Positions 6,591 to 25,681 of a DNA stretch of 25,681 bases are shown here, one piece after another. Position 1 is the first letter of the stretch, and each line of letters opens with the position of its first letter. The notes beneath the pieces were generated by a model, which was not told where the DNA came from, made no database searches, and was given only the letters and a program-made list of their open reading frames with translations. Source of the DNA: Nanobdellota archaeon (GTDB taxonomy: Archaea; Aenigmatarchaeota; Aenigmatarchaeia; QMZP01); NCBI GenBank assembly GCA_043814765.1, contig JBDRJQ010000038.1, positions 1-25,681 of the forward strand, read 5' to 3'. A program made the position numbers and the translations under genes.

Positions 6591-8825
6591 ATGGACATTG
6601 ATACTAGAAAATTAATAAAGAAGAATAGCTATCTTGTTGTAGTTTTATTAATTACTCTAATGGCTTTTTGGCTGAGAAGTTTCCCGGCTCAATATGGTGA
6701 TTTGCAGGCCCTTGATCCTTATTATTTTTACAGAATGGGAGACTATGTGCTAACACATAACTGGCAGTTGCCAGAAGTTGATACTTTAAGATATTATCCT
6801 ACAGGTGTTGTACCTGCTGAAGCAAACTACATGTCGCCTATCTATATGCCTGCATTTGCATATGCAGGGCTTAGTGCTCTCGGCATGTCTATGACTTATC
6901 TCGAGTGGGCAATAATATGGCCAGCACTACTAGGGGCAATCGCTGTATTTGCCATGTTCTTCCTTGGCAGAGAATTGTTCAACAGCAGAACAGCTGGATT
7001 TTTTGCAGCATTTTTCCTCGCAGTCATTCCTGCGTTTATTACGAGAACTTCTGCGGGTTTTTTTGAAAAGGAATCGATTGCCGGCGTTTTTATGATAACT
7101 GGTATGTATTTTTTTGTAAGATCTTATAAGAAAAGTTCATGGATTAACGGTATATTTTCTGGTCTTTCTCTTGCAGTAATGGCAACTGCATGGGGTGGTG
7201 CTGCATACATATTCTTATTATACGCAGCATTTGTGTTTTCTCTCTTTGTTATTCAGGGACTATTGTTGGTTGTAAACTATCTGTTCCCAGGCAGCACAAA
7301 AACTATGGTAGATAGTTTAGAAGGTCTTTTTGGCGGAGCTCTTCTAAAAGCATATGTTCCGACCATACTTCTTGGTACGTTCTTGCATCAAATTTTTTTG
7401 AAACATCTTCCCTTGTCAACAATATACATGCAGCTGGCTTTTGCTGGAATTGGTTTGCTGGTAATAAGGTATGCAGTTAAAGATATCGGTTTACAGAGAT
7501 TAAAGATTGTAAAGGAAGAATTGATTCCTTATGTAATACCTTCATTACTGGTTCTAGCTTTTGTAGGAGTTATATTCGGCTCTATGTTCTATGATCCTTT
7601 CAACAGCATACTGCAAAACCTGTTTGGTTTAACACCGTATTCAGGAGGTTTGATCAGCCAGACTGTTGCTGAGAACGCTCCTGGCGGATGGTCAGAAATA
7701 ACAGGCAAGCTAACAACTGCATTTGCTGCTCCGGTGATGCCTTACTTTACAGGCATATCTGAATTCTTTGCAGTATGGTTTTTCATGATACTAGGTGGTT
7801 TCTTAATGGTATACGAGTTTTTCAGAACAAAGAACTGGTTATATGTATTATTGCTAGTGTGGTTAGTTTCTGGCATATGGTCTGTTTTTGGTATGGTTAG
7901 ACTGACATTCTTAATTGGTCCTCCTGCAGCAATTTCTGCAGCGTTTTTCCTTTACTGGGTTACGAAACGAGCATCAAGACTTGATGTTATTAAGTCAGCT
8001 GAAACACTGAAGAGCAAGTTTAAAGTATACTACGTATCTGTTCCGCTTGTTCTTTTAATAGGATTTTCTCTGCTATTCAACTTCACTGCTGGATTTGTTT
8101 ACTCTCAGCAGCTTGGACCGTCAATAAACGGGCCTTGGAAAGAGTCAATGGCTTATATGGCCGAACAGACGCCTGAAGACTCTGTTATATTGTCTTGGTG
8201 GGATTTCGGTTACTGGTTCCAGACAGTAGGCAAAAGAGCATCTGTAGCTGATGGCGGAAACATGGTTGGCATGATAGATGAAAGTATAGCGGATTGGTTT
8301 ATCTCACCAACAAGCGAGTGGGATGAGTGGATACCTTGGCTGGAAGAGCATGGTGTAACTCACATATTAATGGACTACAGTCTTCCAGGAAAATATGGCG
8401 CCATATCAACAATAGGTACTAGAGGCGAGAGAGCGGATGGTTTCTTACAGTTGCAGCAAACAGATTCATTTGACAGGGGCGATGGTCTAACCATTATAGA
8501 ATTCAGACAAGGTTCTTATGTAGTTTGGATACCGACAGATGGTGGAGATAGCATGGTTGGAAACCCAATGTTCCTTGTTGCTCAGGGAGACCAATTCGTA
8601 GAAAGATACACCATAACAAAAATCTGCAGTAACACTGGTATAAGCGTTCTTGGTGAAGCTGATGATGCTATACCTGGATGTCTTTATATGGGTAATCTTG
8701 GTATGTATTACATACCAGAAGGGCTTGAGAACAACATATTCGTAAGCTTAATGTTCATGGATGGCGCTAATCTTCCAGTAAAAAAGGTTTTTGATAATAG
8801 TTATATAAGAATATATGAAGTTTGA
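6591..8825 (+). CDS. aglB: Oligosaccharyltransferase AglB (STT3 family)
   Basis: Multi-TM N-terminus with DPYY, RTSAGFFEKE, TVAE and R in GMVRL. C-terminal WWDFG, DGGN and a DK-like GKYGAI. Confidence 0.95.
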   Translation: MDIDTRKLIKKNSYLVVVLLITLMAFWLRSFPAQYGDLQALDPYYFYRMGDYVLTHNWQLPEVDTLRYYPTGVVPAEANYMSPIYMPAFAYAGLSALGMSMTYLEWAIIWPALLGAIAVFAMFFLGRELFNSRTAGFFAAFFLAVIPAFITRTSAGFFEKESIAGVFMITGMYFFVRSYKKSSWINGIFSGLSLAVMATAWGGAAYIFLLYAAFVFSLFVIQGLLLVVNYLFPGSTKTMVDSLEGLFGGALLKAYVPTILLGTFLHQIFLKHLPLSTIYMQLAFAGIGLLVIRYAVKDIGLQRLKIVKEELIPYVIPSLLVLAFVGVIFGSMFYDPFNSILQNLFGLTPYSGGLISQTVAENAPGGWSEITGKLTTAFAAPVMPYFTGISEFFAVWFFMILGGFLMVYEFFRTKNWLYVLLLVWLVSGIWSVFGMVRLTFLIGPPAAISAAFFLYWVTKRASRLDVIKSAETLKSKFKVYYVSVPLVLLIGFSLLFNFTAGFVYSQQLGPSINGPWKESMAYMAEQTPEDSVILSWWDFGYWFQTVGKRASVADGGNMVGMIDESIADWFISPTSEWDEWIPWLEEHGVTHILMDYSLPGKYGAISTIGTRGERADGFLQLQQTDSFDRGDGLTIIEFRQGSYVVWIPTDGGDSMVGNPMFLVAQGDQFVERYTITKICSNTGISVLGEADDAIPGCLYMGNLGMYYIPEGLENNIFVSLMFMDGANLPVKKVFDNSYIRIYEV

Positions 8826-8838
8826 TAGAGGTTATTAA

Positions 8839-9852
8839 ATGTTTGAAATGATACCAATAGGAATTGCGTTGTTGGTTGCTTTTCTGATAACTATTTTATT
8901 GATGCCCAAGTATATTAAGAGAGCGAAAGCTATCGGTCTTGTTGGAAGAGACATGAATAAATACGATAAGCCGGAAGTTGCCGAGGCCGGCGGCGTTGTA
9001 ACAATCTTCAGCTTTCTTTTCGCAATCCTTTTCTATATATTTTTAAAAACCTTTTTCTTCAGTGCAGAAACTCATCTTGTTGAGATATTCGTAATAGTAA
9101 TAACAATAGTTCTTGCAGGCTTCATTGGATTTGTTGACGATGTGTTTGGTTGGAAAAAGGGCCTTAAGAGATGGCAGAAACCACTAATGACCTTACCAAT
9201 AGCCATTCCTTTGATGGTAGTCAATGCTGGTCAATCTGTTATGTTTTTGCCGATTATAGGCAGAGTTGATTTTGGTCTGCTCTTCCCTCTTGTGTTTATA
9301 CCTATTGGTTTTGCAGGCGCAACAAACGGCTACAACATGCTCGCAGGCTACAACGGGCTGGAAGCCGGAATGGGCGCTATAATACTGGCTACCATGGGAT
9401 TCATATCATGGTATCTGAACGGTATGATTTGGTTGACAATGGTATCGTTTGTCGGTGTTGCTGTTCTGATAGGTTTCCTGATATATAATTGGTGTCCTGC
9501 TAAGGTCTTTCCTGGCGATTCGCTGACATATATGATTGGCGCATTCATAGTAACTGTAGCTGTCTTTGGCAACATGGAGAAGATAGCTCTGATTCTGTTC
9601 ATACCGTTTATACTCGATGCAATACTATCATTGATGCCAGAGATTAGAGGCAAAGACAAAGTAGAGGCCTTTGGCAAAGTTGGCCCAGACAACAGTCTTG
9701 ATATGCCGTACGAACATGTTTATGATACAACTCATCTTGCTATAAAGATGCTAAAGAAAGTAAAGAGTAAGGTGTATGAGAGAGACGTAACAATAGCATT
9801 GTATCTTTTTGAGATACTAATGGTTGTGCTGGTTTTCGCTTTCTTTATTTAG
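8839..9852 (+). CDS. aglH: UDP-GlcNAc:dolichyl-phosphate GlcNAc-1-phosphate transferase (AglH/Alg7-like, MraY/Glycos_transf_4 family)
   Basis: G.DMNK, AEAGG, GFVDD, NMLAGYNGLE and VFPGDS; polytopic membrane protein; GAGG RBS. Confidence 0.88.
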   Translation: MFEMIPIGIALLVAFLITILLMPKYIKRAKAIGLVGRDMNKYDKPEVAEAGGVVTIFSFLFAILFYIFLKTFFFSAETHLVEIFVIVITIVLAGFIGFVDDVFGWKKGLKRWQKPLMTLPIAIPLMVVNAGQSVMFLPIIGRVDFGLLFPLVFIPIGFAGATNGYNMLAGYNGLEAGMGAIILATMGFISWYLNGMIWLTMVSFVGVAVLIGFLIYNWCPAKVFPGDSLTYMIGAFIVTVAVFGNMEKIALILFIPFILDAILSLMPEIRGKDKVEAFGKVGPDNSLDMPYEHVYDTTHLAIKMLKKVKSKVYERDVTIALYLFEILMVVLVFAFFI

Positions 9853-11064: not shown

Positions 11065-12567
11065 TTAATTCTCATTGTTGTAATTGTCCTTTAGTTTGGA
11101 CAGTGTTTTTTTCATGCTGTCTTCCTTTCTCTGTGCCGTCCAGTAATAAGCCTCATCTCTTGTGTTTTTTGTGATGAACATTATTATCTTTCCGAACTTG
11201 ACTCTGCCAACCCTTCCCTTTCTCTGTATGTTTCTTACCTCACTAGGCACAGGCTCATAAAAAATAGCCATGTCAGCAGAGCTTATATGAAGCCCCTCTT
11301 CTCCTATTGATGTGGTTATGAGGCAATTATAAACACCGCTCTCAAAATCTTTTATTACTCCTATCTGCTGTGTTTGTGACAGCCCCTCTTTTTGTCCTAT
11401 CAGCATAGCAGGCGATGCGCCGTCTATTTTCTTAAGCGTTTCATAAATTTCCTTGACAGTGTCCCTGTAGCTAGCAAATATAATTATCTTAGCTTCTGTT
11501 TTTTCATTTACCTTCTGACCAACAATAGTGCATAATTTGCTTATTTTAGGATGTTTTGATCCCATGTCATAGAGCTCTCTGGTTAAAGACATTGCATGTG
11601 AAACTCTATTATCATTAATCAGAGCCTTGCCTGCTTTTGTTGCATCTTTGCGAAGTCTTTTCCAGTAATTCTCCAGCACGCCTATGCCCTGCGTTTCCAG
11701 TAAGCCCATGCTGTGCTCAATTTTTATAGCCTGGCTGATAAGAAACAATCCGCCAAAGGCGCTTTTATTGCCTTTTCTCGCTTCCTTGGCCAGATATCCC
11801 TGCAGCTCTAAAAGGCCTCTTTTTGTTTTTGTTTGTTTTGCTCCCATTTTCTTTAGCTTGCTAATCTTTTCCATATAGACTTCGTTTAGTATAGCCTTTA
11901 TTCTCTTGAAGCTTTCAGGCAGTTCCAAGTAAACCCACTCTATGTTTTTTTCCATCATATAAGATGAAACGTCTTCATCTTCTTCTGTCCTTATTTCAAC
12001 AGCCTCTATGCCAGAGTTTTTGCATATCTCTCTAATTTTTTCTTCTGTTCCACCAGGAGATGCGGTGAGGCCTAATATTCTGGGATTCTTTGCCTGTTCA
12101 AGATACTTCTCTACAATGTAAGGATAAGCGTATCCGCCTATGGCATGATGAATTTCATCCAGAACCAGTAAACTGAAATCATCTAGGGTTAGTTTTTTTG
12201 TTTTCAAATCGTTTCGTATGGTCTGGGGCGTGGCGAATATAATTGTTTTTTCTTTGTATATATTCTCCCTGAGCGAAGGCTTCATTTCTCCTGTTAGCAC
12301 CTGCATGTCCTCTTCATCTATTTTGAGAAATTTCAGAAATGTCTTGTAGTGCTGATTTACTAACGGCTTGGTTGGCGCAAGCATCATTATCTTGCCTTTA
12401 TCCATCCTGTCAAGCGCCAGAAGTATTGCTATGCCTGTTTTTCCAAGCCCTGTTGGTATTACGCACAGCGTGTTTTTCTTTTTTGCTGTAGCTAGAATAG
12501 ATTCTTGATATTCTCTTAACTGCAGCATTCCTGGTCTTATCAGCGAATGCTCGAAAAACTCTTTCAT
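11065..12567 (-). CDS. hef: Hef/FANCM/Mph1-type SF2 helicase (helicase part only, no nuclease domain)
   Basis: LREYQ, PTGLGKT, APTKPLVNQH, ATPQ, DEIHHA, GLTASPG, HPK, GEEGL, YEPVPS, QRKGRVGR and TRDEAYYW; ends at 500 aa. Confidence 0.92.
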   Translation of the reverse strand: MKEFFEHSLIRPGMLQLREYQESILATAKKKNTLCVIPTGLGKTGIAILLALDRMDKGKIMMLAPTKPLVNQHYKTFLKFLKIDEEDMQVLTGEMKPSLRENIYKEKTIIFATPQTIRNDLKTKKLTLDDFSLLVLDEIHHAIGGYAYPYIVEKYLEQAKNPRILGLTASPGGTEEKIREICKNSGIEAVEIRTEEDEDVSSYMMEKNIEWVYLELPESFKRIKAILNEVYMEKISKLKKMGAKQTKTKRGLLELQGYLAKEARKGNKSAFGGLFLISQAIKIEHSMGLLETQGIGVLENYWKRLRKDATKAGKALINDNRVSHAMSLTRELYDMGSKHPKISKLCTIVGQKVNEKTEAKIIIFASYRDTVKEIYETLKKIDGASPAMLIGQKEGLSQTQQIGVIKDFESGVYNCLITTSIGEEGLHISSADMAIFYEPVPSEVRNIQRKGRVGRVKFGKIIMFITKNTRDEAYYWTAQRKEDSMKKTLSKLKDNYNNEN

Positions 12568-12617
12568 ATAGATTTAATTGTGAAAAGCAATATTAATCCT
12601 AAAAATATAATTAATTT
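12568..12617. promoter_or_regulatory. 50-bp divergent promoter region shared by the helicase and the protease
   Basis: AATATTAAT (12589-12597) is centred about 25 nt from both ATGs; purine-rich GAAAAG upstream on the + strand. Confidence 0.5.
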
Positions 12618-13028
12618 ATGAAAGTTGTTGGCATTGTTGAAGAAATAACCATAAAAGGCAAAACATCAGTAAAAACTCTTGCCCTTTTTGATACAGGAGC
12701 CAAGTTGAGCTCTATTGATAAAGAATTAGCAGAAAAAACAGAGCTTGGTCCAAAGATAAGAACAACCAGAGTTAAATTTGCATCTTCAAAGGCTCAAGTC
12801 AGAAGAGATGTTGTAAAAGCCAAAATAGAGATAAATGGAAAAGCATTTGACTCGGAAGTTAATATTCAGGATCGTTCTCACATGACTTTTCCTGTGATAA
12901 TAGGAAGGAACATAATACGGGGTAATTTTATTGTGGACTGTTCAAAAAACTTGAAACTGTTTGAAAGGCGTGCAAAGGAGATTGAAAAGGACAATAAAAA
13001 ACAGAAAAGAATGGTTGATTTTAAGTAG
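12618..13028 (+). CDS. Retropepsin-like (clan AA) aspartic protease, resembling the RimK-associated putative-protease family; C-terminal PIP-box-like motif
   Basis: ALFDTGA catalytic motif and DRSHMTFPVIIGRN; no signal peptide; ends KKQKRMVDFK. Confidence 0.8.
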   Translation: MKVVGIVEEITIKGKTSVKTLALFDTGAKLSSIDKELAEKTELGPKIRTTRVKFASSKAQVRRDVVKAKIEINGKAFDSEVNIQDRSHMTFPVIIGRNIIRGNFIVDCSKNLKLFERRAKEIEKDNKKQKRMVDFK

Positions 13029-13036
13029 CAGTTTTG

Positions 13037-13062
13037 GATGTGGCCTTAGAAAAGGCTGCCTC
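13037..13062 (+). other. Stem-loop between the protease and pyrG (possible terminator or RNA-stability element)
   Basis: gatgtggcctt-agaa-aaggctgcctc pairs on the + strand with two G-U pairs and one mismatch. Confidence 0.35.
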
Positions 13063-13091
13063 TATTTAAAATTTAGTTTTTAAAATAAACT

Positions 13092-14747
13092 ATGCTGGGA
13101 ATTGGAAAATCTAATGAAAAAAAGAAGCGCAGATTTATAGTTATAACAGGCGGGGTTATCTCTGGTCTGGGTAAGGGAGTGATAACAGCCTCCATTGGAA
13201 AGAATCTTCAAGTGCAGGGATACAAAGTGACTACAATAAAGATTGATCCCTATCTTAATGTGGATGCAGGAACAATGAGGCCCACAGAACATGGAGAGGT
13301 GTGGGTAACTGATGATGGCGGTGAAACAGACCAGGATTTTGGAACCTATGAGCGTTTTCTGGGCAAGAGTTTCTCAAAGAATAACAACATAACAACCGGG
13401 CAGGTTTACCAAACCGTTATTGGAAAGGAAAGGAATCTGGAGTTTAATGGCAAGTGTGTTCAGGTTATTCCGCACATACCAGAAGAGGCTGAGAGAAGGA
13501 TTAGAAAAATCGCTGAAGATGACGACGCTGACTTTGTTATTATTGAAATAGGCGGAACTATTGGCGACTATGAGAACGTATTATTTTTGATAGCTGTAAG
13601 GAGAATGCAGCTAATAGGAGATCCTATTTCCTTTATTCATGTGGTTTATCTGCCTGTACCAGAGACCATTGGTGAAATGAAAACAAAGCCGGCACAACAC
13701 TCTGTAAGAAGGTTGAATGAAGAGGGGATACAGCCAGATTTCATTATTACCAGAGCAAGCGTGCCTGTTGATGATGTCAGAAAAGGAAAGCTGTCTGTTT
13801 TCTGCAATATTAAACCAGAGCAAATTGTCTCCAGTCCTGATTTGAAATACATCTACGAGCTTCCGCTCATATTTGAAAAGCAGAATTTCACAGAGAATTT
13901 ACTGAGCAAATTCGGATTGAAGTATAAAAAAACAGGCGGCTTGAAGGACTGGGAAGCTTTGGTGGACAGCATGAAACACGCTGAACAGAAGGTTAAGATT
14001 GCTATTGTTGGCAAGTATTTTGATACTGGAAATTTCACGCTAGAGGATTCCTATGTTTCTGTAATAGAAGCGATAAAACATGCAGCATGGCATAAAAAAC
14101 TAAAGCCAGAGATAGTGTGGATGGATTCTAAGGAGTTTGAAGAGGACGAGAGCAAGCTGAAAAGACTGGATGATATGGACGGTGTGATAATACCAGGCGG
14201 ATTCGGAAGCAGTGGTGTTGAGGGAAAGATTAAAACAATAGAGTATATCAGAAAGAACAAAATACCTTTTCTGGGCCTTTGCTACGGAATGCAGATGGCT
14301 GTCATCGAGTATGCAAGAAATGTTTGCGGCATGGATGCCAATTCTTCTGAGATAAACCAAAATGTGGAATGCCCTGTAATAGACATACTGCCAGAACAGA
14401 AAGAACTGATAAAGAACAAACAGTATGGCGCAACAATGCGTTTAGGCGCATATGAAGCAAACCTTAAAGAGGGCAGCGTAGTTCATGATCTGTACGGAAA
14501 GAATGTTGTAAGCGAAAGGCATAGGCACAGGTATGAAGTAAATCCAGAGTATATACAGAAGCTGGAAGAGAAAGGCCTTATCTTCTCTGGTGTTTCACCA
14601 GACAGAAAGCTTATGGAATTCCTAGAGCTTCCTAAAGATGTCCACCCGTTCTTCGTCGCTACACAAGCGCATCCAGAATTCACATCAAGGGTTTTAGAAC
14701 CCAATCCGCTATTTGTTGGTTTCATTGAAGCTGCAATGAAAAAATAA
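13092..14747 (+). CDS. pyrG: CTP synthase
   Basis: TGGVISGLGKG, KIDPYLNVDAGTM, EHGEV, EIGGTIGD, KTKPAQ, catalytic GLCYGMQ, RHRHRYE, QAHPEF. Confidence 0.98.
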   Translation: MLGIGKSNEKKKRRFIVITGGVISGLGKGVITASIGKNLQVQGYKVTTIKIDPYLNVDAGTMRPTEHGEVWVTDDGGETDQDFGTYERFLGKSFSKNNNITTGQVYQTVIGKERNLEFNGKCVQVIPHIPEEAERRIRKIAEDDDADFVIIEIGGTIGDYENVLFLIAVRRMQLIGDPISFIHVVYLPVPETIGEMKTKPAQHSVRRLNEEGIQPDFIITRASVPVDDVRKGKLSVFCNIKPEQIVSSPDLKYIYELPLIFEKQNFTENLLSKFGLKYKKTGGLKDWEALVDSMKHAEQKVKIAIVGKYFDTGNFTLEDSYVSVIEAIKHAAWHKKLKPEIVWMDSKEFEEDESKLKRLDDMDGVIIPGGFGSSGVEGKIKTIEYIRKNKIPFLGLCYGMQMAVIEYARNVCGMDANSSEINQNVECPVIDILPEQKELIKNKQYGATMRLGAYEANLKEGSVVHDLYGKNVVSERHRHRYEVNPEYIQKLEEKGLIFSGVSPDRKLMEFLELPKDVHPFFVATQAHPEFTSRVLEPNPLFVGFIEAAMKK

Positions 14748-15416
14748 TCACTTTTTATAGCTGCTGTCCAGCAGGCTCCTTATTCTCTCAGCTTTCTTTG
14801 GTCCCATCTTGTCCACTTTTCTGAGTTCTTTCACATCAGCATTGAAAACGTCTTTAGGCGTCTTGAAATGCTCTAGAAGCTTCTTGCTCATCTTGTTGGA
14901 TATTAGCGGCAGTCCAGAAACAAGGAACTCCTGCTGTTGCTTTATGCCGTTAGCTCTTGCCTTGTAGCGTATCTGCAAGTCTTTTTTTTGGCCGAACTGC
15001 TCCCTGTAAGCTATCCAGTATATCTGAGCAGCCGTTTCCCTTTGAGAATGAGTCCATAGCACAGGAATCCTGTAATCTATGGTTAAAGATGACAGTGCGC
15101 CTCTTATGGCGTTTTCATGTATGTTCCTGTCGCCATTGAAAAGGTCTTCAGGATTCCCTTCCATGATTAAAAGTGGCCTCTTAAACGATTTCATCATCAC
15201 ATCTGCCTGCCTGAACATTCTTTGGTCTACTATTGACTGTAAGAAATCCGGTACAGTCTTCCTCTCTATGCAGACTCGATCAGATGCTATGTAGTCTCCT
15301 GTTTTTAGGTTCTTTATTTTCAGCTCAGCTCCGTGTTCTTGTATATAGCCAAATATATCTGAGTGCATCTCCCGGTTGTCTGCTATTATCTTCACTTTGA
15401 ATGATTCTTTTTGCAT
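14748..15416 (-). CDS. xpf: Stand-alone XPF/ERCC4 structure-specific endonuclease with (HhH)2 domain
   Basis: ADNRE, GDY, ERKT, D..SI.D.R...Q, IMEG, C-terminal HhH (VDKMGPKKA). Start moved from TTG 15425 to ATG 15416, which lies about 25 nt from an AT box. Confidence 0.9.
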   Translation of the reverse strand: MQKESFKVKIIADNREMHSDIFGYIQEHGAELKIKNLKTGDYIASDRVCIERKTVPDFLQSIVDQRMFRQADVMMKSFKRPLLIMEGNPEDLFNGDRNIHENAIRGALSSLTIDYRIPVLWTHSQRETAAQIYWIAYREQFGQKKDLQIRYKARANGIKQQQEFLVSGLPLISNKMSKKLLEHFKTPKDVFNADVKELRKVDKMGPKKAERIRSLLDSSYKK

Positions 15417-15468
15417 AGTAATCAATAACTAATAATTATTTATTAACTTTACCAACTAATAGTAATAT
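15417..15468. promoter_or_regulatory. Divergent promoter region between xpf and the 584-aa surface protein
   Basis: TTATTTATTAA (15436-15446) lies 20-33 nt from both ATGs. Confidence 0.45.
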
Positions 15469-17223
15469 ATGAGAAAGTTAGTGCTGTTTAGTGTTTGCCT
15501 TGTTTTACTGTTAGCAGTTTACAATGTTTCTGCAGTTGACATGGTAAAAACCATACCATCATGCGATGCCAAGTGCTACATATCAGAAGATGCAAATGTT
15601 ATAATGTATGTAACTGAAACCGCTTCAGAGCCAGTAAGATTTGAATGGCGTCTGATAGACGGTTCAACTGGTGATGATCCTGTTGCAAGGGGCATTTTTC
15701 CTAAAGTGGGGGATAAGCACTTCTGTTTTTTCTCTTCTGACTCAGACAACAATTGCGGACCAACTCCGTTTACAACAAGCACTGTGTTCGGATATGACTT
15801 AAGAACAAGAAAGGTTACTGACGCTGGTGCAGGAGCAGAGGAAGTTAAAAATATAGTTCCAAGTGATATTGAATTAACACCTTCTGTTATAGTGATTGGC
15901 AATGAGGTTAAAATAACACTCTATGCGCCAACAATAGATTCAGTAAGCTACAAAATTTATTACGCTAATCTAACAGTTGCAAAAACCTCTTCTATGAGCC
16001 TGTCAGATACTCTGCCATTTACTTATGTTGATAGCGTAACGTTTTCACAGGGCAAATATTACATAGCCTTTGAGGCTGATGCCCCTGGTCCAACATACGG
16101 TGGTGCAGTAGAAACATTTACCATAGGAGAAGCTGCTGGAGTCACATATAATGTGGTGGCTGAAAAAGCAAGCGGCACCATAACAATAACCAATTCCGGT
16201 GATGATGGAAAGATATCAGGATTGGACATAGACAATAATGGCGACGCTGAAGTAACTGGCTTAACAGTTGATGTTCCTTCCGGTCTAAGCAATGTTGATA
16301 TTACTCTAAGCGAAGATATGATAGCAGCAGGTGAAAAGATTACCTATGAAGTAAAGGTTAATGATGTAACCGGTTCCATGTGCATTTTCACTACAGCCAG
16401 CCTGCTGTCAGACGGTGAAAAGATTGGAGTTATAGACCTGGAGATAACAGTTGATCTAAAGGAAAGCGTCACAACCACTGGCGGTGATACAAACACATTG
16501 AGCATAGAAGAGAATCCAACTATAACAGGAAATTATCTGACGACAGATATGATAGAAAAAACATTCACCATTAAAAACAACGGGGATGCTGACGTAGAGG
16601 ATATAAGCAGTGTTGTTTCCTTAGGAGGATCAGCAGGAGTTAGCGTTGATTTGCCTAATAGTATAGCAGCAGGCGAGGAAGAGGAGATAACAGTAGAGAT
16701 AACCAGCTCCTTTGCCGGTACTATTGCAGGCAAGATAACAATAACAACTGAAGCTGGAGACAAGATAATATTGGTTAATGTTAATTTCTTTAATAGCCTT
16801 TCATCAAATAAAGCTTCGCTAGAATCCAGATTATCTACTATAAGAAGCACTTATAGCGGAATAGCCAGTGAATTGTCAGGCGCCTTCGCATCAGTTGGCT
16901 CTGACTTATCAAACGCAGGCGTGTCCATTCTCGGTAAGGATTACACAACAGCTCAGATAGATTTAGCAAGAGCAGAAGCTGGAATGGATGTTGTTTCTGA
17001 CCTTGCGCCTGAAATACTAAGTTGTAGTTCAGTAACCCCACCATCAGATAATAATGGTAGTGACTTTATCATAGACCCACTGCTTATAATAATCATAATT
17101 GTAATCCTAGTGGCAGCTGGAGTAGGTGCCTGGTATTACTTCAGTCAAAAAAGCGCTGGTGGAGAAGAAGGATACGACGAGGAAGAAGGTTCTTACGAGA
17201 AAGAAGGCGAAGATAATTTTTAG
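15469..17223 (+). CDS. Membrane-anchored surface protein: signal peptide, Ig-like/CARDB-like beta domains, helical stalk, C-terminal TM, acidic tail
   Basis: Signal MRKLVLFSVCLVLLLAVYNVSA. Internal repeat NNGDA.V...IAAGE at 114-aa spacing. TM PLLIIIIIVILVAAGVGAWYYF. Tail GGEEGYDEEEGSYEKEGEDNF. Confidence 0.85.
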   Translation: MRKLVLFSVCLVLLLAVYNVSAVDMVKTIPSCDAKCYISEDANVIMYVTETASEPVRFEWRLIDGSTGDDPVARGIFPKVGDKHFCFFSSDSDNNCGPTPFTTSTVFGYDLRTRKVTDAGAGAEEVKNIVPSDIELTPSVIVIGNEVKITLYAPTIDSVSYKIYYANLTVAKTSSMSLSDTLPFTYVDSVTFSQGKYYIAFEADAPGPTYGGAVETFTIGEAAGVTYNVVAEKASGTITITNSGDDGKISGLDIDNNGDAEVTGLTVDVPSGLSNVDITLSEDMIAAGEKITYEVKVNDVTGSMCIFTTASLLSDGEKIGVIDLEITVDLKESVTTTGGDTNTLSIEENPTITGNYLTTDMIEKTFTIKNNGDADVEDISSVVSLGGSAGVSVDLPNSIAAGEEEEITVEITSSFAGTIAGKITITTEAGDKIILVNVNFFNSLSSNKASLESRLSTIRSTYSGIASELSGAFASVGSDLSNAGVSILGKDYTTAQIDLARAEAGMDVVSDLAPEILSCSSVTPPSDNNGSDFIIDPLLIIIIIVILVAAGVGAWYYFSQKSAGGEEGYDEEEGSYEKEGEDNF

Positions 17224-17932: not shown

Positions 17933-20900
17933 CTACACATCAGCAGGTATATCATTAATTCCGCCACTGCCACCCGGACTGCCACCCGGACTGCATTCAG
18001 AATCATCAGGATGATGATACGTTATTATTCCTGGCATTGTATGTTTTTCTGTACCGCCAACCGTCCAGTATCCTATTACGTTATACTGACGTCCTCCAAC
18101 TTGCGTTCCAGCTGAGAAAATCTCATTCTCAGTTAATGTGAGATCTGGTGATGGATCACTATTCGTTGCAATTGTTTTACAGGAAGTAGGTGGATTGCTT
18201 GCATCCGTAACATCGTCCTTTGGGCACACCTTTACATTCCAGCTAGATATTGTGGGTGGCTCCATGTCTATTACATCAACTTCCAATGATTTGATGTTAA
18301 TCTTATTATTATCTCCCAGGCAGAATTTAACAGGCAATAGTTTTACGTTATTGATTCTAACATCGTCTGGATTTGCAGTTATTCCATTTTTGTCAAGACC
18401 AGGCACGTTGATATCGACATCTGGGGGTGCTGGAAGGTCTAAACCTGTTGAAACTTCAGCATACCTAACAACCAAATCTACAAGTGTATTTATTGCCGCC
18501 TCTGCAAGGTCTACCATAGCCTGTATATAGCTTACATCAACACCAAAATACATCATGATAGCAATGATTACAATCAATATTCCTATTATCCATAATAATT
18601 TTTTAACCATACTGTCCATTGCATTTTTAGCAGCGTTTCTTTGAGTTCCTACGCCGTCTGGAGTGTTACGGACAAGCTTATCTGTGTCATAAGTAAAATC
18701 AATATCATCTGAACTTAACACAAAGGTGTGAGTCTTTCCCAAGGCGTCTGTAAACTGCGCTTCAGTGCCGCTAAATGATATTTTGCCTGCTTCGTTTTTC
18801 TTTTCTCCTGGCCATGCAATAACAGTGTCTTTTAAACCAAGAATGCATTTGTAATAATCCGTTTCTGATATGCAGCCAGTATCCAATTCTACAGTTTCTC
18901 CCCCAACAGTTACTGTTGATTTCCATTTAAAAACAGCAAACCTGTCGCTTAGCGGCTGGTTGTCTATTTTAACTTTTACAGTCGGATTGTTTTGGAATAT
19001 GCATTCATCAGGGAACTCGCTATCCCTAGCGCAATAAACCTTTTTCCCGTCTGATGCTTTTATCGATCCAGTTCCTGAACCCAACCACTTTATTTTCATG
19101 TCAGCAGGTGATTTGCATGGATTTGACAGGTCAGAAGTGCAGTATGTGTCAGTAGGACAATCACAGTCTATGCAACAATTATTATAATCTTCTCCAACGG
19201 GTTTCTTTTCTGGCTCACATTTATCATATCCAGGAATTTCATAGCCTAGACCTGCTCCGCAAGAACTGGCTATGCATCCCATTTCAGGATAATTTATATT
19301 GCAGTATGTGCCAGGGTATTTCACAAGACAGGCTTCTGGAGGTGATTTATTGATTCCACAATCAAGGCATGAAGCAACACATGTGGTACCATCATCACTG
19401 TTTATAGGATTAGGACAAGTTATTCTTTCTCCTGCAGTAGAAGCGCAGTAATTGTCACCCACAAAAGGAGATGCACACTTACGATAATTTTCTTTTGACG
19501 GATTATGGTTTTGGCAGTAAGTATTGAGTTCGCAACTTACAGGGTCCTCTGCATATGGGAAATCAGTGCAGCATTCGCCAGCCATTCCAATGCCCTCAGC
19601 TTCTGGTATGAAAACGCCGTCTCCACATTCTATTTTTTTGCATTCCCAGGAGCCGTATGGATTTAAGCCACCATTAAAAGTTGGACAATAATAATCTTTT
19701 GGACAGTCGTACGTGTCCAAACAGCAGTCAGTAAGTTTGTCTGCTACTATGTCAAAGTATTCAGGCGGTTCAGGCGTACCGTCGTTGCAAACAGATATTT
19801 TGCACTCCTTTCCTGATGCTTCATCACAGTACCATTTAGGGCCACCGCCATGAAGATTTTGACAAACAATGTCTCCGCCAGCGTCCTGGCAACAGAATGC
19901 ATCACTGCCAGGAACGTCTTCTCCTGGTTCAGGAGGATAGCCGCTAGGACAAAGTGTCTCAACGCAAAAACCTAACTTATCTGAACAGTAATAATCATCA
20001 CCATTTGTATGTGCACAGTATAAGTCAGCGCTAGTTGCATCTTTCCATCCTCCCTTACCTGCATCTTTATAGCAGTCCTGACAGCACATGTCAGCTGTTT
20101 CTTCGCCTTCGCACTTGCCGTCACCGCAAGTAGTCACTATTGGCTTGCAAGTTGTACCTGAACAATAATAATCATCACCATTTGTGGTTATACAATACGA
20201 GTCGGCGCTGGTTGCACCATTCAATCCTCCCTTATCTGCATTGTTATAACAGTCCTGACAGCACATGTCAGCTGTTTCTTCGCCTTCGCACTTGCCGTCA
20301 CCGCAAGTAGTCACTATTGGCTTGCAAGTTGTACCTGAACAATAATAATCATCGTTATTATTTGTTATTTTACAATACAAGTCAGCGGTCATTCCATCTT
20401 CTGCTATTCCTCCCTTACCTGCATCTTTATAGCAGTCCTGACAGCATTCAGAAGCTGTTTCTTCGCCCTCGCACTTGTTGTTACCGCAGACAGTCTTTTC
20501 AGAGAAAATGATAAGAGGCAAGCTCTTTTTATAAGGAACGCTTCCCACTAAGATTACGCCTGGTTGGCCTTCTCCTTTTACATCATTAAATCTGATGATG
20601 CCTGAAATGAATGCCTCTAATGGCAAATATCCTGTCGGTGGTTTATCAATTTGTTGTATTTTAAATTCGCACTTAAATTCCTGTTGTCCGCTAGTCAGTG
20701 GATCATCACATTTTTCGTAAAGTATTTCACCGTTTACGCCTTCCATTAATGTTTCAAAGTTTGCGCTTACTGTTTTTAAGCCCAGAGGCCTGTTGTCAAT
20801 TCTGTACCAAAACGTTATTGTATGAGATATGTCAAATGCATGAGAATCATATTTTATGTTTCCCTTCCAAACACCATCAACAAATGCTATTGGGCTGCCA

Positions 20901-23029
20901 TCGCCCTTAACGCTGAATATCGTTATGCCTATGTTGCCTTTTGATTTGCATGTTGCTCCAGCTGGCTCTCCGGTCTTGTAATCACAGTATTCTCCTTCTG
21001 GACAGCCATTTGGGTCGTCATAACAGCAAATCTCGCCAGTTTCTAAAATTCCGTCACCGCAGGTGAATTTGCTTATCTTTATGGATTCTGAGAACACATT
21101 ATCCAGAGCAACCTCTTTGGTTGGGTCACCGCCTGCATAACCGTTTGTATAGCTAACATCAAAAGTTACTTTTGGTGTTATTGCATAGTCTCCCAAAAGG
21201 CTGTTAAAGCCCGGCACTCCTGTGAATAGCATATCACAGTTATATTCATCATAGGAATCTGTCTTTGTTGACTCTGTGCAAACAACATTGCATCCTGGAG
21301 CTGTTGGGCAGTCCGGACAGGATGCTATCTCGCAGGCAGGCGTTTGGTCAACATTTAATCCGCCTGGCTTAGTTACAGCTTCTCCTGTTTCAGATGCAGA
21401 AAATATACCCACTCTTGCAACAAAACCGACTTTGTCAACAGCTGGATTGTAGAAATTCAGAACTGTTGGTTCTATGCTAGATATAATGAGATTGGACGAG
21501 TCCAAATCCTCTTTGCATACCGGATTATCAGAATCAAAGACATCGCAGTAATATCCTTCCTCGCATTCTGCTTCTAAACAGCTGGAAGCTAAAACAGCAT
21601 CAAAATGGACATCATTAAAGTCTTTTGTAGCAGTTCCGTCACCGTCGCTGAAGCTTACTGAAACAGACAGGCTGTTGTCTGTGAACTTTACTCCTTCAGC
21701 ACATTCCTCCACTATTTCAGGAACGCTCATCGAGCACTCAAACTCTTTTATAGTGGCTGCATCACCAATAGCTACGCATGCCATTGGTTCAGAAGCATCC
21801 ATGAACTCCAGCTGGAAGCTTGCTGAATCTATTGCAAGCCCGTCAACTGCTGTTATGATTATGCTCATCTTCGCTGTCTGCGCACTGCATGTGAACAGGT
21901 TAATCTTATCTGATTTTAGGCGCATTGTTAATTCTGATGTTGCTTTGCATATTTTGTCTATAGGGTCGCAGTAATTGCCGTCTTCACAGAACTGGTCAGC
22001 ATTCAATGGGCAGTCAACGCAGCAGTTGCCAATATTTTCGCCTATGTCGCATTGGCTGTTGCCGCATGTTCCCAGCTCAACTTTCTCAAACAGAATAGGA
22101 CTGGCTATCTCATACCATCCAAGGTTTGAGTTCTGTCCTTCAGGGAAAACAAGCATGTGAGTCTTGTCAGCAGCATCTATTTCCTCTTCATTTAGCTCGT
22201 TCTCTTCAATATACTCTATGAAATCTTCTGCTCCTGTTGCATCAAAATCCGCTGGGATGTTGTCAGCAGCAGCTTTGTAAAGGCTTTCTGTGTCATAGCT
22301 CTTGCTGTCCTTTCCTTCTGCGTCAGTGAAACCATTGAACACAGCACTGTCAATGTATGTTAAAGGTATTGCCTGATGGTTCTCTATGTAATCTTGCATT
22401 TCTTCGGCTGTGTAGCCTTCTGTCAGGTAGATGTCCAGGCTGTCCAGCTTGTAGCTGTAGTGATGAACCAGCGACGGGGTTTCCCTGTAAAACTCCTCCC
22501 AGAAGCCCATAAGCGTGTCTGTTCCTTCTTTTGTCACGTCAACAATAACAAGGAAGTTCTCTGTCCTGAAATATGTCAAGTCCGGATGGTCTGATGGGTT
22601 TGCCCAGCTGTAGGAGTCGCTTGCTATCTGAGGTTCTTGGTCAGAAATCATGATTTCAGTTGCATCAATATTTTCTATGCAGTCTTTAACATCTCTGGAC
22701 AGGCAGCGATAGATATGAACAGTGTTCATGTCAACATTTCCAGAACCCCCTGTCTTTGTAATGTCAAAGTTTATGATGTTGTCGTATCCGGTTTGCTCAT
22801 CATACAAGAGCTCCACTTCCACAGCAACATCGATATATTCTTCGGGATTTATGTCAATTGTTAGGTCGGGTTCTGCGCTTCCAAAATTGTATATGCCTAT
22901 CTCAACAGCGCCTGAAACAGGCAGGAAAAGAATCAGATAGGAGCATACTATCGCAAAGAAGCTCAGTATGAATGGCTCTAATTCTACGCTTTTCATGTTC
23001 GCTTTAATGCTTGTTCGGTTCAATCGCAT
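17933..23029 (-). CDS. Giant (1698 aa) acidic Cys-rich modular exported protein
   Basis: Signal-like N-terminus ending VSGA, AAGGT RBS-like sequence. About 11 variants of a CG[DN]..C...E...CC.DC...YC...C module interspersed with beta-rich domains. One hydrophobic helix about 200 aa from the C-terminus. Confidence 0.88.
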   Translation of the reverse strand: MRLNRTSIKANMKSVELEPFILSFFAIVCSYLILFLPVSGAVEIGIYNFGSAEPDLTIDINPEEYIDVAVEVELLYDEQTGYDNIINFDITKTGGSGNVDMNTVHIYRCLSRDVKDCIENIDATEIMISDQEPQIASDSYSWANPSDHPDLTYFRTENFLVIVDVTKEGTDTLMGFWEEFYRETPSLVHHYSYKLDSLDIYLTEGYTAEEMQDYIENHQAIPLTYIDSAVFNGFTDAEGKDSKSYDTESLYKAAADNIPADFDATGAEDFIEYIEENELNEEEIDAADKTHMLVFPEGQNSNLGWYEIASPILFEKVELGTCGNSQCDIGENIGNCCVDCPLNADQFCEDGNYCDPIDKICKATSELTMRLKSDKINLFTCSAQTAKMSIIITAVDGLAIDSASFQLEFMDASEPMACVAIGDAATIKEFECSMSVPEIVEECAEGVKFTDNSLSVSVSFSDGDGTATKDFNDVHFDAVLASSCLEAECEEGYYCDVFDSDNPVCKEDLDSSNLIISSIEPTVLNFYNPAVDKVGFVARVGIFSASETGEAVTKPGGLNVDQTPACEIASCPDCPTAPGCNVVCTESTKTDSYDEYNCDMLFTGVPGFNSLLGDYAITPKVTFDVSYTNGYAGGDPTKEVALDNVFSESIKISKFTCGDGILETGEICCYDDPNGCPEGEYCDYKTGEPAGATCKSKGNIGITIFSVKGDGSPIAFVDGVWKGNIKYDSHAFDISHTITFWYRIDNRPLGLKTVSANFETLMEGVNGEILYEKCDDPLTSGQQEFKCEFKIQQIDKPPTGYLPLEAFISGIIRFNDVKGEGQPGVILVGSVPYKKSLPLIIFSEKTVCGNNKCEGEETASECCQDCYKDAGKGGIAEDGMTADLYCKITNNNDDYYCSGTTCKPIVTTCGDGKCEGEETADMCCQDCYNNADKGGLNGATSADSYCITTNGDDYYCSGTTCKPIVTTCGDGKCEGEETADMCCQDCYKDAGKGGWKDATSADLYCAHTNGDDYYCSDKLGFCVETLCPSGYPPEPGEDVPGSDAFCCQDAGGDIVCQNLHGGGPKWYCDEASGKECKISVCNDGTPEPPEYFDIVADKLTDCCLDTYDCPKDYYCPTFNGGLNPYGSWECKKIECGDGVFIPEAEGIGMAGECCTDFPYAEDPVSCELNTYCQNHNPSKENYRKCASPFVGDNYCASTAGERITCPNPINSDDGTTCVASCLDCGINKSPPEACLVKYPGTYCNINYPEMGCIASSCGAGLGYEIPGYDKCEPEKKPVGEDYNNCCIDCDCPTDTYCTSDLSNPCKSPADMKIKWLGSGTGSIKASDGKKVYCARDSEFPDECIFQNNPTVKVKIDNQPLSDRFAVFKWKSTVTVGGETVELDTGCISETDYYKCILGLKDTVIAWPGEKKNEAGKISFSGTEAQFTDALGKTHTFVLSSDDIDFTYDTDKLVRNTPDGVGTQRNAAKNAMDSMVKKLLWIIGILIVIIAIMMYFGVDVSYIQAMVDLAEAAINTLVDLVVRYAEVSTGLDLPAPPDVDINVPGLDKNGITANPDDVRINNVKLLPVKFCLGDNNKINIKSLEVDVIDMEPPTISSWNVKVCPKDDVTDASNPPTSCKTIATNSDPSPDLTLTENEIFSAGTQVGGRQYNVIGYWTVGGTEKHTMPGIITYHHPDDSECSPGGSPGGSGGINDIPADV
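17966..17994. repeat. 12-bp tandem repeat x2.4 (actgccacccgg) encoding SPGGSPGGS
   Basis: Exact copies at 17966-17977 and 17978-17989, plus a partial copy. Confidence 0.85.
19981..20488. repeat. Intragenic tandem repeat, about 3 units of 177-183 bp (59-61 aa Cys-rich module)
   Basis: ctgaac anchors at 19981, 20158 and 20335. 104-bp exact duplicate 20073-20176 = 20250-20353. 39-bp exact duplicate 20048-20086 = 20408-20446. Confidence 0.95.
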
Positions 23030-23053: not shown

Positions 23054-25681
23054 TCAACACAACCAAGTACCAGGACATTTATTTGGGAAGCATGACGGTG
23101 CTGTTGCGTATTCGTCTCCAACCATGCATGAATAATATGCGCCTGAAGCTGGTACCTTAGACACCCAACATCCACCACCAATGATTCCCATGCCTGGGGG
23201 GCAATATGTTGCTGATCCACACTCCCTAAATCCTCCTAAGTAAACACCATTAACATAGACACCTCTTAATAGATATGGCGTTACCCAGCAGCTCTCGGAT
23301 ACAGCTGAATATGTGCACTCTAAGTCATTGTCAAAACCGATAGGTAAATAGTTTATTACATTAAATGAGCCACAATTGTTTGCTGAGAAAACTTGTTCTA
23401 TTATATATTGTTGCCGTGCATAATTGAACATATTAAACAAACGCCCCTGTGCAGGGTTGTCCGCTTCAAGTTTTGGAACATAGATATAATACTCATCGTC
23501 TCCTGTTATCTCTATGCCCGAGGCAGCACCAACTGAACTCAGATGCATGAAATCCTTGAAATCTGAATTGACTATCTTATAATATTGTTCTTCTAAACCA
23601 ATTTTGCTTGCTATTTCATCTGGTATAACATCTTTCAGTTCTATCTTTTTTGCAGCCGAGTCTATGCCTGTAACCAAAGAGCTGAAATCTCCTGAACTGA
23701 AGACCAATGTAGATACCTGATTGAATAAGGTTGGATCAATAGACCATGTGCCTTGCGTTTGTATTGCATCAACATATACTACGTTGCTAGCTGGCACGCT
23801 GGTAATCTTTCCTTCAGACAGGGATATTCCTGGAGTTGTACTGAATGAAAACAACTCAACATCATAATTAACACCCTTTGGTATGTCTCTTGTAGTCTTG
23901 AATGTTGTTGGACTTCCCCCTTCACCGGCATTTGTAATTAAAATATCATCATGACCAGCAGCAGTAAGAGTCATGGAAACGACAGCATCCGCAGATGTTA
24001 TTTCTGAAGGGTATCCTCTGCCAAGAGAAATAACATTATCATTAGTTTCACCGTAAAAGATATAATCATATTTGCTACCAAGATCGCTATTTGATACTAT
24101 TTTCTTGTATATGGGAACTTCGTAAAAATGGAAGGTTACTATTGGATTTTGTTTTAATTCAACTATCGCATAATCACCACTAATATCAGGAGAAGTGCAT
24201 AAACCATTGGAATCGTCTGTTTTACGGTCAATTGATATGCAGGTGTTGGATGTTGGTTCTGAATACTCTATATAATCCTGCTTGAAGACATTCAAATCTC
24301 CTGTCAAGACTCCTTCTGGCATGTATCCTTCAACGTATCCGTCTGCATCTGTAACGTATTGATTCGCATCGTATATTAAGCATCCTCCAAAACTGACATA
24401 AGCTCCAATAACACCCTCTCCTGCTTCATCAACGACTTTTATCTTTGCACGCTCAGTTCCTTGGGAGCAATATGTTGATACAGATGATGTGCTGCCGCAT
24501 TCATCTTTGCTTATAGCATTGTTTCCTCCGTCATATGATAATCTGTTAAGCGTGGCAAACTTGAATTTTTTGTTTCTCAAAGAATCATCCAGGCTAACTA
24601 TGACAGGGAAGGTGAAATCATAGTCTGTTGATGACCAAACAGCCGGATCCGGTATTGATGTGCCGATAAGCACAATTATCTTTGGCTTTATAATGATTGT
24701 TGACGGATTAGACTTGAAATTTGACGGAGTTAAAGTGTTTAATGCAAACGTGTCCCCCTCTTTTCCAAGAGAGAAGCTTACAGTAGGGTTGTCTTGATTG
24801 GTTTTGTATGTTTGGAACTGAGGATATGTTAGACCGTTTAAAGACAGTATTGAATAGTCTGGGTTAGTTGTTCCTGGGTTGGGCGGTTTTGCCCATAATC
24901 TTACGTCAGAAAGCGTGTCATGTATAACGTATTCCACTCTGTCCATTAGCATGAAGGGTGGTATTACTATAACCTTTGAAAATGGAACAGGCAACTGAGC
25001 TATATTCACAGGCACAAATTTATCTGTGTCAATATCAATGAATGAATCATCTGGCGTTGTAAGCATCATTGAATATGCAACATATTGTTCAAAATGTCTT
25101 TCATTTTTGTTCTCTACAGCAAAAGCACTCGCAAAATTATACAATTCCTTGAATTTAGAATCAACTGATGCTTTGTATTGCGAGAAAGACTTTCCTTCAA
25201 CAACAGTTTCCCAAACAACACTGGCTTCTATTTTATTGTCCAGTATTCTTACAATGACCTCTGGACTGCCCATGAATTCAACATTATTAAAATTATCTTT
25301 GACTTTGTCAATGTTAGCTGGATTTTTTATATAATTTTTTAATGTCGTTGACATGTCTTGCTCTATTATCTCAATTGGGGTGCTAAAGGCTAAATCATTG
25401 CACGTCTGCCAATACATTACCTTTTCATCTGTGCTGTAATCTATAGCATAATTTTTGTTGATTTCTGAATTAATTTTCTCTGAAGAAACACCGCCTGTAG
25501 AATAAAACTCGTCTAAAACCTCATTCATGCTTACAACTAAGAAACTTTCAAAACTTTCCTTGACGGCTCTCTGTTTTTCATCGAGTAATATGGTTGGCTC
25601 CAGGGGTCCGTTAATGACGCTTTGCCAGACAAGATAACCTGCTGCCACAACAAGAGCAAGCAGAACGACTATTATAATTAT
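23054..25681 (-). CDS. Large N-terminally anchored surface protein (5' end outside the window) with a carboxypeptidase-regulatory-like beta-sandwich and Cys-rich C-terminus
   Basis: The frame stays open past GTG 25648 to the edge and reads IIIIVVLLALVVAAGYLVWQS (TM). KVVDEAGEGVIGAYVS...TDADGY...LNVFKQDY is a prealbumin/CarboxypepD_reg-like pattern. Confidence 0.85.
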   Translation of the reverse strand: MIIIVVLLALVVAAGYLVWQSVINGPLEPTILLDEKQRAVKESFESFLVVSMNEVLDEFYSTGGVSSEKINSEINKNYAIDYSTDEKVMYWQTCNDLAFSTPIEIIEQDMSTTLKNYIKNPANIDKVKDNFNNVEFMGSPEVIVRILDNKIEASVVWETVVEGKSFSQYKASVDSKFKELYNFASAFAVENKNERHFEQYVAYSMMLTTPDDSFIDIDTDKFVPVNIAQLPVPFSKVIVIPPFMLMDRVEYVIHDTLSDVRLWAKPPNPGTTNPDYSILSLNGLTYPQFQTYKTNQDNPTVSFSLGKEGDTFALNTLTPSNFKSNPSTIIIKPKIIVLIGTSIPDPAVWSSTDYDFTFPVIVSLDDSLRNKKFKFATLNRLSYDGGNNAISKDECGSTSSVSTYCSQGTERAKIKVVDEAGEGVIGAYVSFGGCLIYDANQYVTDADGYVEGYMPEGVLTGDLNVFKQDYIEYSEPTSNTCISIDRKTDDSNGLCTSPDISGDYAIVELKQNPIVTFHFYEVPIYKKIVSNSDLGSKYDYIFYGETNDNVISLGRGYPSEITSADAVVSMTLTAAGHDDILITNAGEGGSPTTFKTTRDIPKGVNYDVELFSFSTTPGISLSEGKITSVPASNVVYVDAIQTQGTWSIDPTLFNQVSTLVFSSGDFSSLVTGIDSAAKKIELKDVIPDEIASKIGLEEQYYKIVNSDFKDFMHLSSVGAASGIEITGDDEYYIYVPKLEADNPAQGRLFNMFNYARQQYIIEQVFSANNCGSFNVINYLPIGFDNDLECTYSAVSESCWVTPYLLRGVYVNGVYLGGFRECGSATYCPPGMGIIGGGCWVSKVPASGAYYSCMVGDEYATAPSCFPNKCPGTWLC

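Follow-up and report, generated by a model that had tools for sequence, protein, structure and literature searches.

RimB of Pseudomonas fluorescens is, according to the available portion of its description, a cytoplasmic retropepsin-like endopeptidase of the RimABK system that strips glutamates from RimK-polyglutamylated RpsF and stimulates RimK (PMC11957791). The RloA enzymes cleave poly-Glu via a basic channel and carry signal peptides, as stated in the accessible sections of PMC12239564, and RimB likewise cleaves poly-Glu through a basic channel (PMC12239564, PMC11957791). We examined a gene for a 136-aa protease in a 25,681-nt stretch of archaeal DNA (contig JBDRJQ010000038.1; hereafter the window), which forms contig C38 of a genome (G000) of 859 kb and 88% completeness from the phylum Aenigmatarchaeota. 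This gene lies head-to-head with a gene for a Hef-type helicase, and an earlier note on the DNA had read the two, together with a nearby nuclease gene, as a candidate fork-repair module, naming a RimB-like poly-Glu peptidase as the alternative. That alternative proved to be the better reading: given its PF05618 membership, the DUF785 folds among its nearest structures, the RimK operons of its homologues and its co-occurrence with RimK, the 136-aa protein is likely an archaeal RimB-like peptidase that belongs functionally to a RimK system encoded in trans. To our knowledge, polyglutamylation by RimK and RimB has been studied only in bacteria, on ribosomal protein bS6, the bacterial RimK target that archaea, as far as we know, do not possess. 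A literature search combining RimK with DPANN returned no description of such a system, a search under COG4067 gave nothing useful, and the word "archaea" is never mentioned in the available portions of the two RimB/Rlo papers.

The 136-aa protein matched the Pfam family PF05618 ("Zn_protease", DUF785) with 49.2 bits, above the gathering cut-off of 27, and generic retropepsin families of Pfam matched it more weakly. PF05618 was also present in 82/82 database homologues, and close homologues carry the public names "RimK/LysX family protein" or "ATP-dependent zinc protease". The motifs ALFD25TGAK and IIGRN were both found. As determined from an alignment of 27 homologues, D25, G27, A28, R63, D85, R86, G96, and R97 were invariant, and the active site read D-T/S-G-A. 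The basic positions specific to the family were kept as well, namely K29 of DTGAK, R63 at the place of the RPV motif (RRD in the window protein), and R86 of DRS. The AlphaFold2 model (mean predicted local distance difference test [pLDDT] score, 92.9) showed a core rich in beta strands and, after it, a helix formed by residues 112-135, and no UBL, HDD, UBA, or further Pfam domain was found in the protein, which comprises one protease domain and one helix. Being a single-domain retropepsin of this family, it presumably acts as a homodimer with one catalytic aspartate (D25) per subunit.

Ranking of solved structures by Foldseek and by profile placed RloA (9g58), Lpg0085/DUF785 of Legionella (2pma), and RloA2 (9g59) first, followed by retroviral proteases and then by Ddi1; the profile alignment with the DUF785 structures showed the DTGAK, RPV, and DRS..P.liG motifs in common. 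According to the part of the source at hand, RloA of Pseudomonas cleaves poly-Glu in vitro (PMC12239564). The Rlo proteins, however, are extracytoplasmic enzymes with signal peptides, whereas residues 2-13 of the window protein are modelled as strands of the folded domain (pLDDT, 96-97), and no hydrophobic leader was seen in the sequence, on which no dedicated signal-peptide predictor was run. The protease is thus predicted to be cytoplasmic, as RimB is, because its N terminus belongs to the fold. The retropepsin (RVP) domain of Ddi1/DDI2 shares the fold (Foldseek E value, ~2.5e-5; PDB profile E value, 5e-3), but it ranks under the DUF785 structures, and the window protein has none of the UBL, HDD, and UBA domains that accompany it. 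From the family and the conserved basic residues K29, R63, and R86, we infer endoproteolysis of alpha-linked glutamate runs.

The genes beside the protease were then compared across related genomes; because related genomes are not independent, the counts of loci and genomes given here and below overstate the number of independent events, and many of the genomes are incomplete. In the other orders of the class, the protease gene was followed by a RimK gene in 11/11 loci, a second RimK-like gene lay near this pair in 8 of the 11, and Hef was not found within 5 kb of the protease in any of them. Just upstream of the protease-RimK-RimK2 operon, 8 of these 11 loci (L179-L189) had a gene for a protein of 317-349 aa ("c2") without a Pfam match, and in two of the operon loci a GCS2-family ligase gene was inserted. 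Three loci of other DPANN groups, L067 from Diapherotrites plus L069 and L070, also had RimK directly beside the homologue, and in L063 the gene before the homologue encodes an ATP-grasp protein. In four Nanohaloarchaea loci (L068, L071, L072, and L073), the homologue was divergent from one or two Peptidase_M29 genes, with ATP-grasp_5 or TYW3, not RimK, coming next. Within the window's own order, RimK lay within ~1 kb after the protease in nine genomes (all eight of family f6 and one of f3), whose layout was the Hef helicase gene divergent from protease-RimK, usually with the second RimK-like gene next. Homologues therefore usually stand beside rimK, a finding that the earlier note itself had named as speaking against its repair module. 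Because RimK operons without Hef were found in every other-order locus and RimK loci in other DPANN, the ancestral context of the protease is RimK, and it was in a single order that the protease came to adjoin Hef.

In that order, the adjacency is firmly kept. The protease homologue divergently adjoined the Hef helicase gene in 28/29 loci of relatives in the window's order, and the same divergent pairing was found in 28/29 Aenigmatarchaeota loci extracted with wider flanks, a set that largely overlaps the first in genomes. The other flank of the helicase gene was kept only in a locus of the same genus (L038), and PyrG came next after the protease in 12/29 of the Aenigmatarchaeota loci, its place being taken by RimK in family f6. 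This result indicated that the Hef-protease pair outlasts the surrounding synteny and that the adjacency is not due to chance; the term "chance neighbour", used in the earlier note for the RimB-like alternative, understates it. In the window, the head-to-head arrangement described in that note was confirmed: the spacer between the two start codons measures exactly 50 bp and contains an AT-rich, TATA-like box, ATATTAAT, which lies ~25 nt away from the start codons of both genes (Table 1). A box-to-start distance of ~25 nt agrees with that of an archaeal TATA box serving leaderless transcripts. The spacers of relatives were ~30-50 nt long and held one or two AT-rich boxes. In a groundwater RNA run (X1), four short contigs of at least 99% identity mapped to the helicase gene, to pyrG, and to the nuclease gene at its 5' end, and the protease gene had none; these were considered as evidence on co-expression and set aside as unusable either way, since they are contigs only, may reflect DNA carry-over, and carry neither strands nor start sites.

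Table 1. Positions of the features of the protease-Hef region, numbered from the first letter of the window
Feature	Position	Strand	Description
Hef helicase half, 500 aa	11065-12567	-	Superfamily 2 (SF2) helicase by motifs PTGLGKT and DEIH; NF010337 positions 2-510, 603.3 bits
Divergent intergenic region, 50 bp	12568-12617		AT-rich, with TATA-like box at 12590-12597 (sequence read directly)
Putative RimB-like retropepsin-type aspartic peptidase, 136 aa	12618-13028	+	PF05618/DUF785; catalytic D25 codon at 12690-12692
C-terminal motif Q129-K-R-M-V-D-F-K136, resembling a PCNA-interacting peptide	13002-13025	+	Ends the predicted helix of residues 112-135
CTP synthase PyrG	13092-14747	+	NF003792, 700.7 bits; neighbour, outside the system
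Hef nuclease half, ~223 aa	14748-15416	-	ERCC4 (GDY...ERK...D) and HhH2; alternative TTG start at 15425

Presence and absence of the genes separated RimK from Hef. The window's order was represented by 61 genomes (G000 included); the protease was present in 37 of them, and a strong RimK match (E value of at most 1e-30) was found in 37/37 protease-positive versus 2/24 protease-negative genomes. An even sample of 201 Aenigmatarchaeota genomes gave the same direction, with the protease in 43/201 and a strong RimK match in 43/43 protease-positive versus 21/158 other genomes. The Hef helicase, in turn, was retained in 20 of the 24 genomes of the order that lack the protease. In genus g13, the synteny of Hef nuclease gene, PyrG, an empty slot, and Hef helicase gene was kept, and the protease and the strong RimK match were both missing; open reading frames (ORFs) in the g13 slot (L145:3908-4195 and L148:3304-3600) were tried as protease remnants and rejected, being unlike the protease and unlike each other. 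Thus, protease presence follows RimK, not Hef, and the direction is unambiguous. The tie to repair genes suggested earlier found no phyletic counterpart; the protease tracked RimK instead.

The ligase genes of the source genome lie elsewhere. Its RimK is encoded on contig C35 (TIGR00768, 185.5 bits; cut-off, 143.4), and RimK2 on contig C8, where it is followed by a gene for a 282-aa MscS-like protein and then by the homologue of the 317-349-aa operon gene (C8:21194-22081). Compared with RimB of P. fluorescens, the window protein shares PF05618, the form of a small, cytoplasmic, single-domain retropepsin, and the DTG active site, as well as the genomic and phyletic coupling to a RimK-family alpha-L-glutamate ligase, so far as the available text of PMC11957791 describes them. 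What is new relative to the studied RimB is the host without bS6, the extra partner genes of the ancestral archaeal operon (the second RimK-like gene and the 317-349-aa gene), the unlinking of the window gene from rimK, its pairing with the Hef helicase gene, and the tail, an extra C-terminal helix with an end resembling a PCNA-interacting peptide (PIP).

Taken together, these observations suggest the following picture. The protein would be a cytoplasmic endopeptidase for oligo- or poly-alpha-glutamate, whose partner would be the RimK-family glutamate ligase or ligases of the genome; it would trim the Glu tails or peptides that these make and, by analogy with Pseudomonas RimB, might modulate the ligase too. 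The ancestral operon would have been (317-349-aa gene)-protease-RimK-RimK2. Within the order of the window, it would have become the divergent neighbour of the gene for the helicase half of a split Hef, and in the window's family the ligase genes would then have left, RimK to what is now contig C35 and RimK2 with the 317-349-aa gene to contig C8. The protease gene would have stayed, its promoter and that of the Hef helicase gene being interlocked within 50 bp. The C-terminal helix ends in a lineage-specific motif of PIP likeness.

Several observations weigh against a RimB-like role in a RimK system. The RimB equivalog model NF052261 was not reached (18.7 bits versus a cut-off of 200), and all the NCBIfam models matched, namely RloA3 (40.3 bits versus 210), RloA2, RloA, and RimB, scored far under their equivalog cut-offs, so that by profile the 136-aa protein belongs to the family only distantly and is no orthologue of the RimB and Rlo enzymes studied so far. 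In the source genome, rimK and the protease lie on different contigs, and their coupling is drawn only from relatives and from co-occurrence. Nor does a role with RimK explain the order-wide pairing with the Hef helicase gene, for which interlocked promoters are the sole neutral explanation that we can offer. Finally, the PIP-like tail has no role in the RimB model, although it is rare in the genome, recurrent in homologues, and accompanied by a weak PCNA prediction.

The tail was examined at the level of sequence and of predicted complexes. Its end, QKRMVDFK, does not fit the canonical PIP box Qxx[LIVM]xx[FY][FYW], as position 8 is Lys and the second aromatic residue is missing, but it does carry the looser Q..[LIMV]..[FYW] at the extreme C terminus. 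When the six-frame ORFs of at least 100 aa of the source genome (n = 973) were scanned for this looser pattern within the last 14 residues, 8 carried it, three of them unverified. The protease was among the 8, together with FEN1 (QSSLGKFF), PolB (QSDLTRFV), Nre (QSRIDSFL), and a 423-aa protein (QKSLTEFN); in RNase HII, the corresponding QSKLGQWL lies slightly further from the C terminus. The 423-aa protein, encoded at G000:C3:11132-12400 (L195), matched no Pfam family and may be a PCNA client not recognised before. The tails of the 82 database homologues, as read from their listing, comprised 12 of a Q type ([GK]Q..L..F[ILV]-like), 15 of the form KK[TM]LSEY, 4 of the form G[LI][KR].I.[ED]F, and 51 with none of these. 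The Q type occurred in 9/61 anchored tails; 1,000 shuffles yielded 0.15 such tails on average and never more than 2, a contrast that is not a probability because the homologues are related. Homologues from the RimK operons of other orders had tails without the motif.

Complex prediction for the protease with the PCNA of the source genome gave a score of 0.58 (0.57-0.59 in three runs) versus 0.24 for the best of three controls and was graded as weak support; the runs shared at least 90% of their contacts, with a partner pLDDT of at least 79. In the calibration of this score, the mark was reached by 116/157 solved complexes and 2/215 mismatched pairs, and the range of up to 0.60 held only 18 of the 157 solved complexes and both passing mismatches, counts that are rough because own alignments were used. 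Since PIP-PCNA complexes are common among solved structures, the score may reflect likeness instead of binding. Of the earlier description of the protease as PIP-tailed, the resemblance to the tails of the genome's PCNA clients stands, with weak support from PCNA folding, but the motif is only partial. A literature search for retropepsins with archaea and PCNA found no description of such a protein.

Similar ends were found on the partner gene's product. In most relatives, the C terminus of the helicase half carries a PIP-like [LI]x[DEK]F motif (QSDLGKF, TLGDF, and KTLRDFG are examples), which is missing in G000 and in its same-genus relative. In family f6, the helicase and protease tails are alike (K[TS]Lx[DE][FY]), and FEN1 there retains the canonical QS.L..F, so this likeness is not simply a dialect of the lineage. 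The two tails do not strictly co-vary, however: many genomes have the motif on one of the two proteins only, and the helicase of the source genome is without it. PCNA itself, which ends in ...PRVEE, was also considered as a RimK target and rejected, as a C-terminal Glu was found in 14/21 RimK-positive versus 3/8 RimK-negative genomes and did not track RimK.

Against this background, three other explanations were weighed. According to one, the protein is a clamp-tethered, Ddi1-like repair protease that is co-expressed with Hef, removes proteins or DNA-protein crosslinks from stalled forks, and acts independently of RimK. Its appeal comes from the head-to-head arrangement with the Hef helicase gene over 30-50 bp, which persists in 28/29 loci of the order and outlasts the other flank of the helicase gene, from the likeness of QKRMVDFK to the FEN1, PolB, and Nre tails of the genome, from the weakly supported PCNA complex with its distance from the best control, and from the presence of Ddi1 RVP domains among the fold matches. 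Yet 20/24 protease-lacking relatives have Hef without the protease, the protease never occurs without RimK, and outside the order its gene stands in RimK operons with no Hef nearby. Moreover, the protein has no UBL, UBA, or other accessory domain of Ddi1, a Q-type tail is borne by only 12/82 homologues, and the weak pass with PCNA may be likeness only, PIP-PCNA being well represented among solved structures. We therefore regard this explanation as very improbable, and the Ddi1-like fork or crosslink module with Hef and XPF put forward in the earlier note is not supported, in view of the RimK operons without Hef and the RimK-tracking phyletic pattern. A second explanation would place a RimK/RimB-like system at the replisome, where the tail brings the peptidase to PCNA to trim RimK-added Glu from a replication or repair protein, its expression being coupled to that of Hef by the shared promoter region. 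It would reconcile the RimK co-occurrence with the Hef adjacency, the PIP-like tail, and the weak PCNA score, and the similar [LI]x[DEK]F end of the split Hef helicase in most relatives agrees with it. Nevertheless, no candidate substrate was found, the C-terminal Glu of PCNA did not track RimK, and co-variation between the tails of helicase and protease is not strict. Since the tails of the other-order RimK-operon homologues lack the motif, such a role would be a recent, lineage-specific addition, and we consider it unlikely.

The third explanation concerns the tail and the adjacency themselves: the tail may be a basic, fast-evolving helix and end, binding to RimK or to nothing in particular, and the Hef adjacency may be neutral, kept by overlapping leaderless promoters. 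At least five lineage-specific tail classes exist, 51/82 homologues have no motif, and the second aromatic of the canonical PIP box is absent, all of which fit a tail that does not bind PCNA; so does the binding of RimK by Pseudomonas RimB, as reported in the available part of PMC11957791. The spacers of 30-50 bp are too short for separate promoters, which fits a neutral adjacency. On the other side, the motif is rare in the genome, where it otherwise marks PCNA clients, and the 9/61 anchored Q-type tails exceed anything seen in the shuffles, with the relatedness of the homologues to be borne in mind. We judge this explanation to be quite plausible, if slightly short of an even chance. For the protein as a whole, a RimB-like peptidase working with a RimK system encoded in trans is still the reading that we hold to be likely.

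The helicase and nuclease genes deserve separate mention. The model of Hef (NF010337, 781 positions), a fused helicase-nuclease of the FANCM/XPF family in Pyrococcus and Thermococcus, was matched by both genes of the window. The nuclease gene product, with the Pfam domains ERCC4 and HHH_5, matched NF010337 positions 565-780 with 246.3 bits and the Arch_Xpf model with 139.5 bits (cut-off, 300), and no fused Hef was found elsewhere in the source genome, in which the helicase is single copy. Because NF010337 outscores Arch_Xpf and the genome has no fused Hef, the nuclease is assigned as a Hef half, and by these matches the window carries a split Hef whose halves flank the protease gene and pyrG. 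The halves lie on the same strand in reversed order relative to the Pyrococcus/Thermococcus protein, with the nuclease gene upstream of the helicase gene and two opposite-strand genes between them. Thus, an XPF gene 1.7 kb further on, as the earlier note had it, holds for the position and for the ERCC4 nuclease, but not for the identity as a stand-alone Xpf (246 versus 139.5 bits). Across the order, a helicase match was found in 57/61 genomes, most of the frames being ~500-570 aa long and none of the 57 being fused; these frame lengths, together with the lack of a fused form in G000, indicate that Hef is split in this lineage. A literature search on split Hef in DPANN or on a link between Hef and a protease found nothing relevant.

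Further genes of the window surround this region. A gene for a 584-aa secreted or anchored protein (15469-17223, + strand) is divergent from the Hef nuclease gene, an adjacency kept in 8 nuclease-retaining loci. Beyond it lie a gene for a 1698-aa Cys-rich protein (17933-23029, - strand) with repeated CGDGKCEGEETA..CCQDCY modules and a C-terminal membrane anchor, and, adjoining that gene, an 864-aa ORF (23054-25648, - strand); the 1698-aa and 864-aa proteins are probably surface proteins of the DPANN cell. Upstream of the region, a gene for a 744-aa multi-pass membrane protein is followed by one for a 337-aa membrane protein (6591-9852, + strand), and, to judge from sequence, the first could be an oligosaccharyltransferase of the AglB/STT3 type and the second a glycosyl-phosphate transferase.

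The main outcome is a correction: the reading of the locus as a repair module, attractive as it is, is not supported. The analysis also documents the separation of Hef into helicase and nuclease genes for a whole order. The RimK/RimB-like pair, with a second ligase and a conserved operon gene, is widespread in a DPANN phylum without bS6, and the pair must therefore have another target there. It is a slim prospect, in our estimate, that in this order a RimB-like peptidase has been drawn into genome maintenance, with RimK polyglutamylation in trans and clamp-bound trimming regulating a replisome or fork-repair protein. On this view, the peptidase would be expressed from a promoter region entwined with that of the split-Hef helicase gene and, in some lineages, that of the window among them, would carry a PCNA-interacting motif at its C terminus. 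Should the PIP-like tail truly bind PCNA, this would be the first indication of a link between polyglutamylation and the archaeal replisome.

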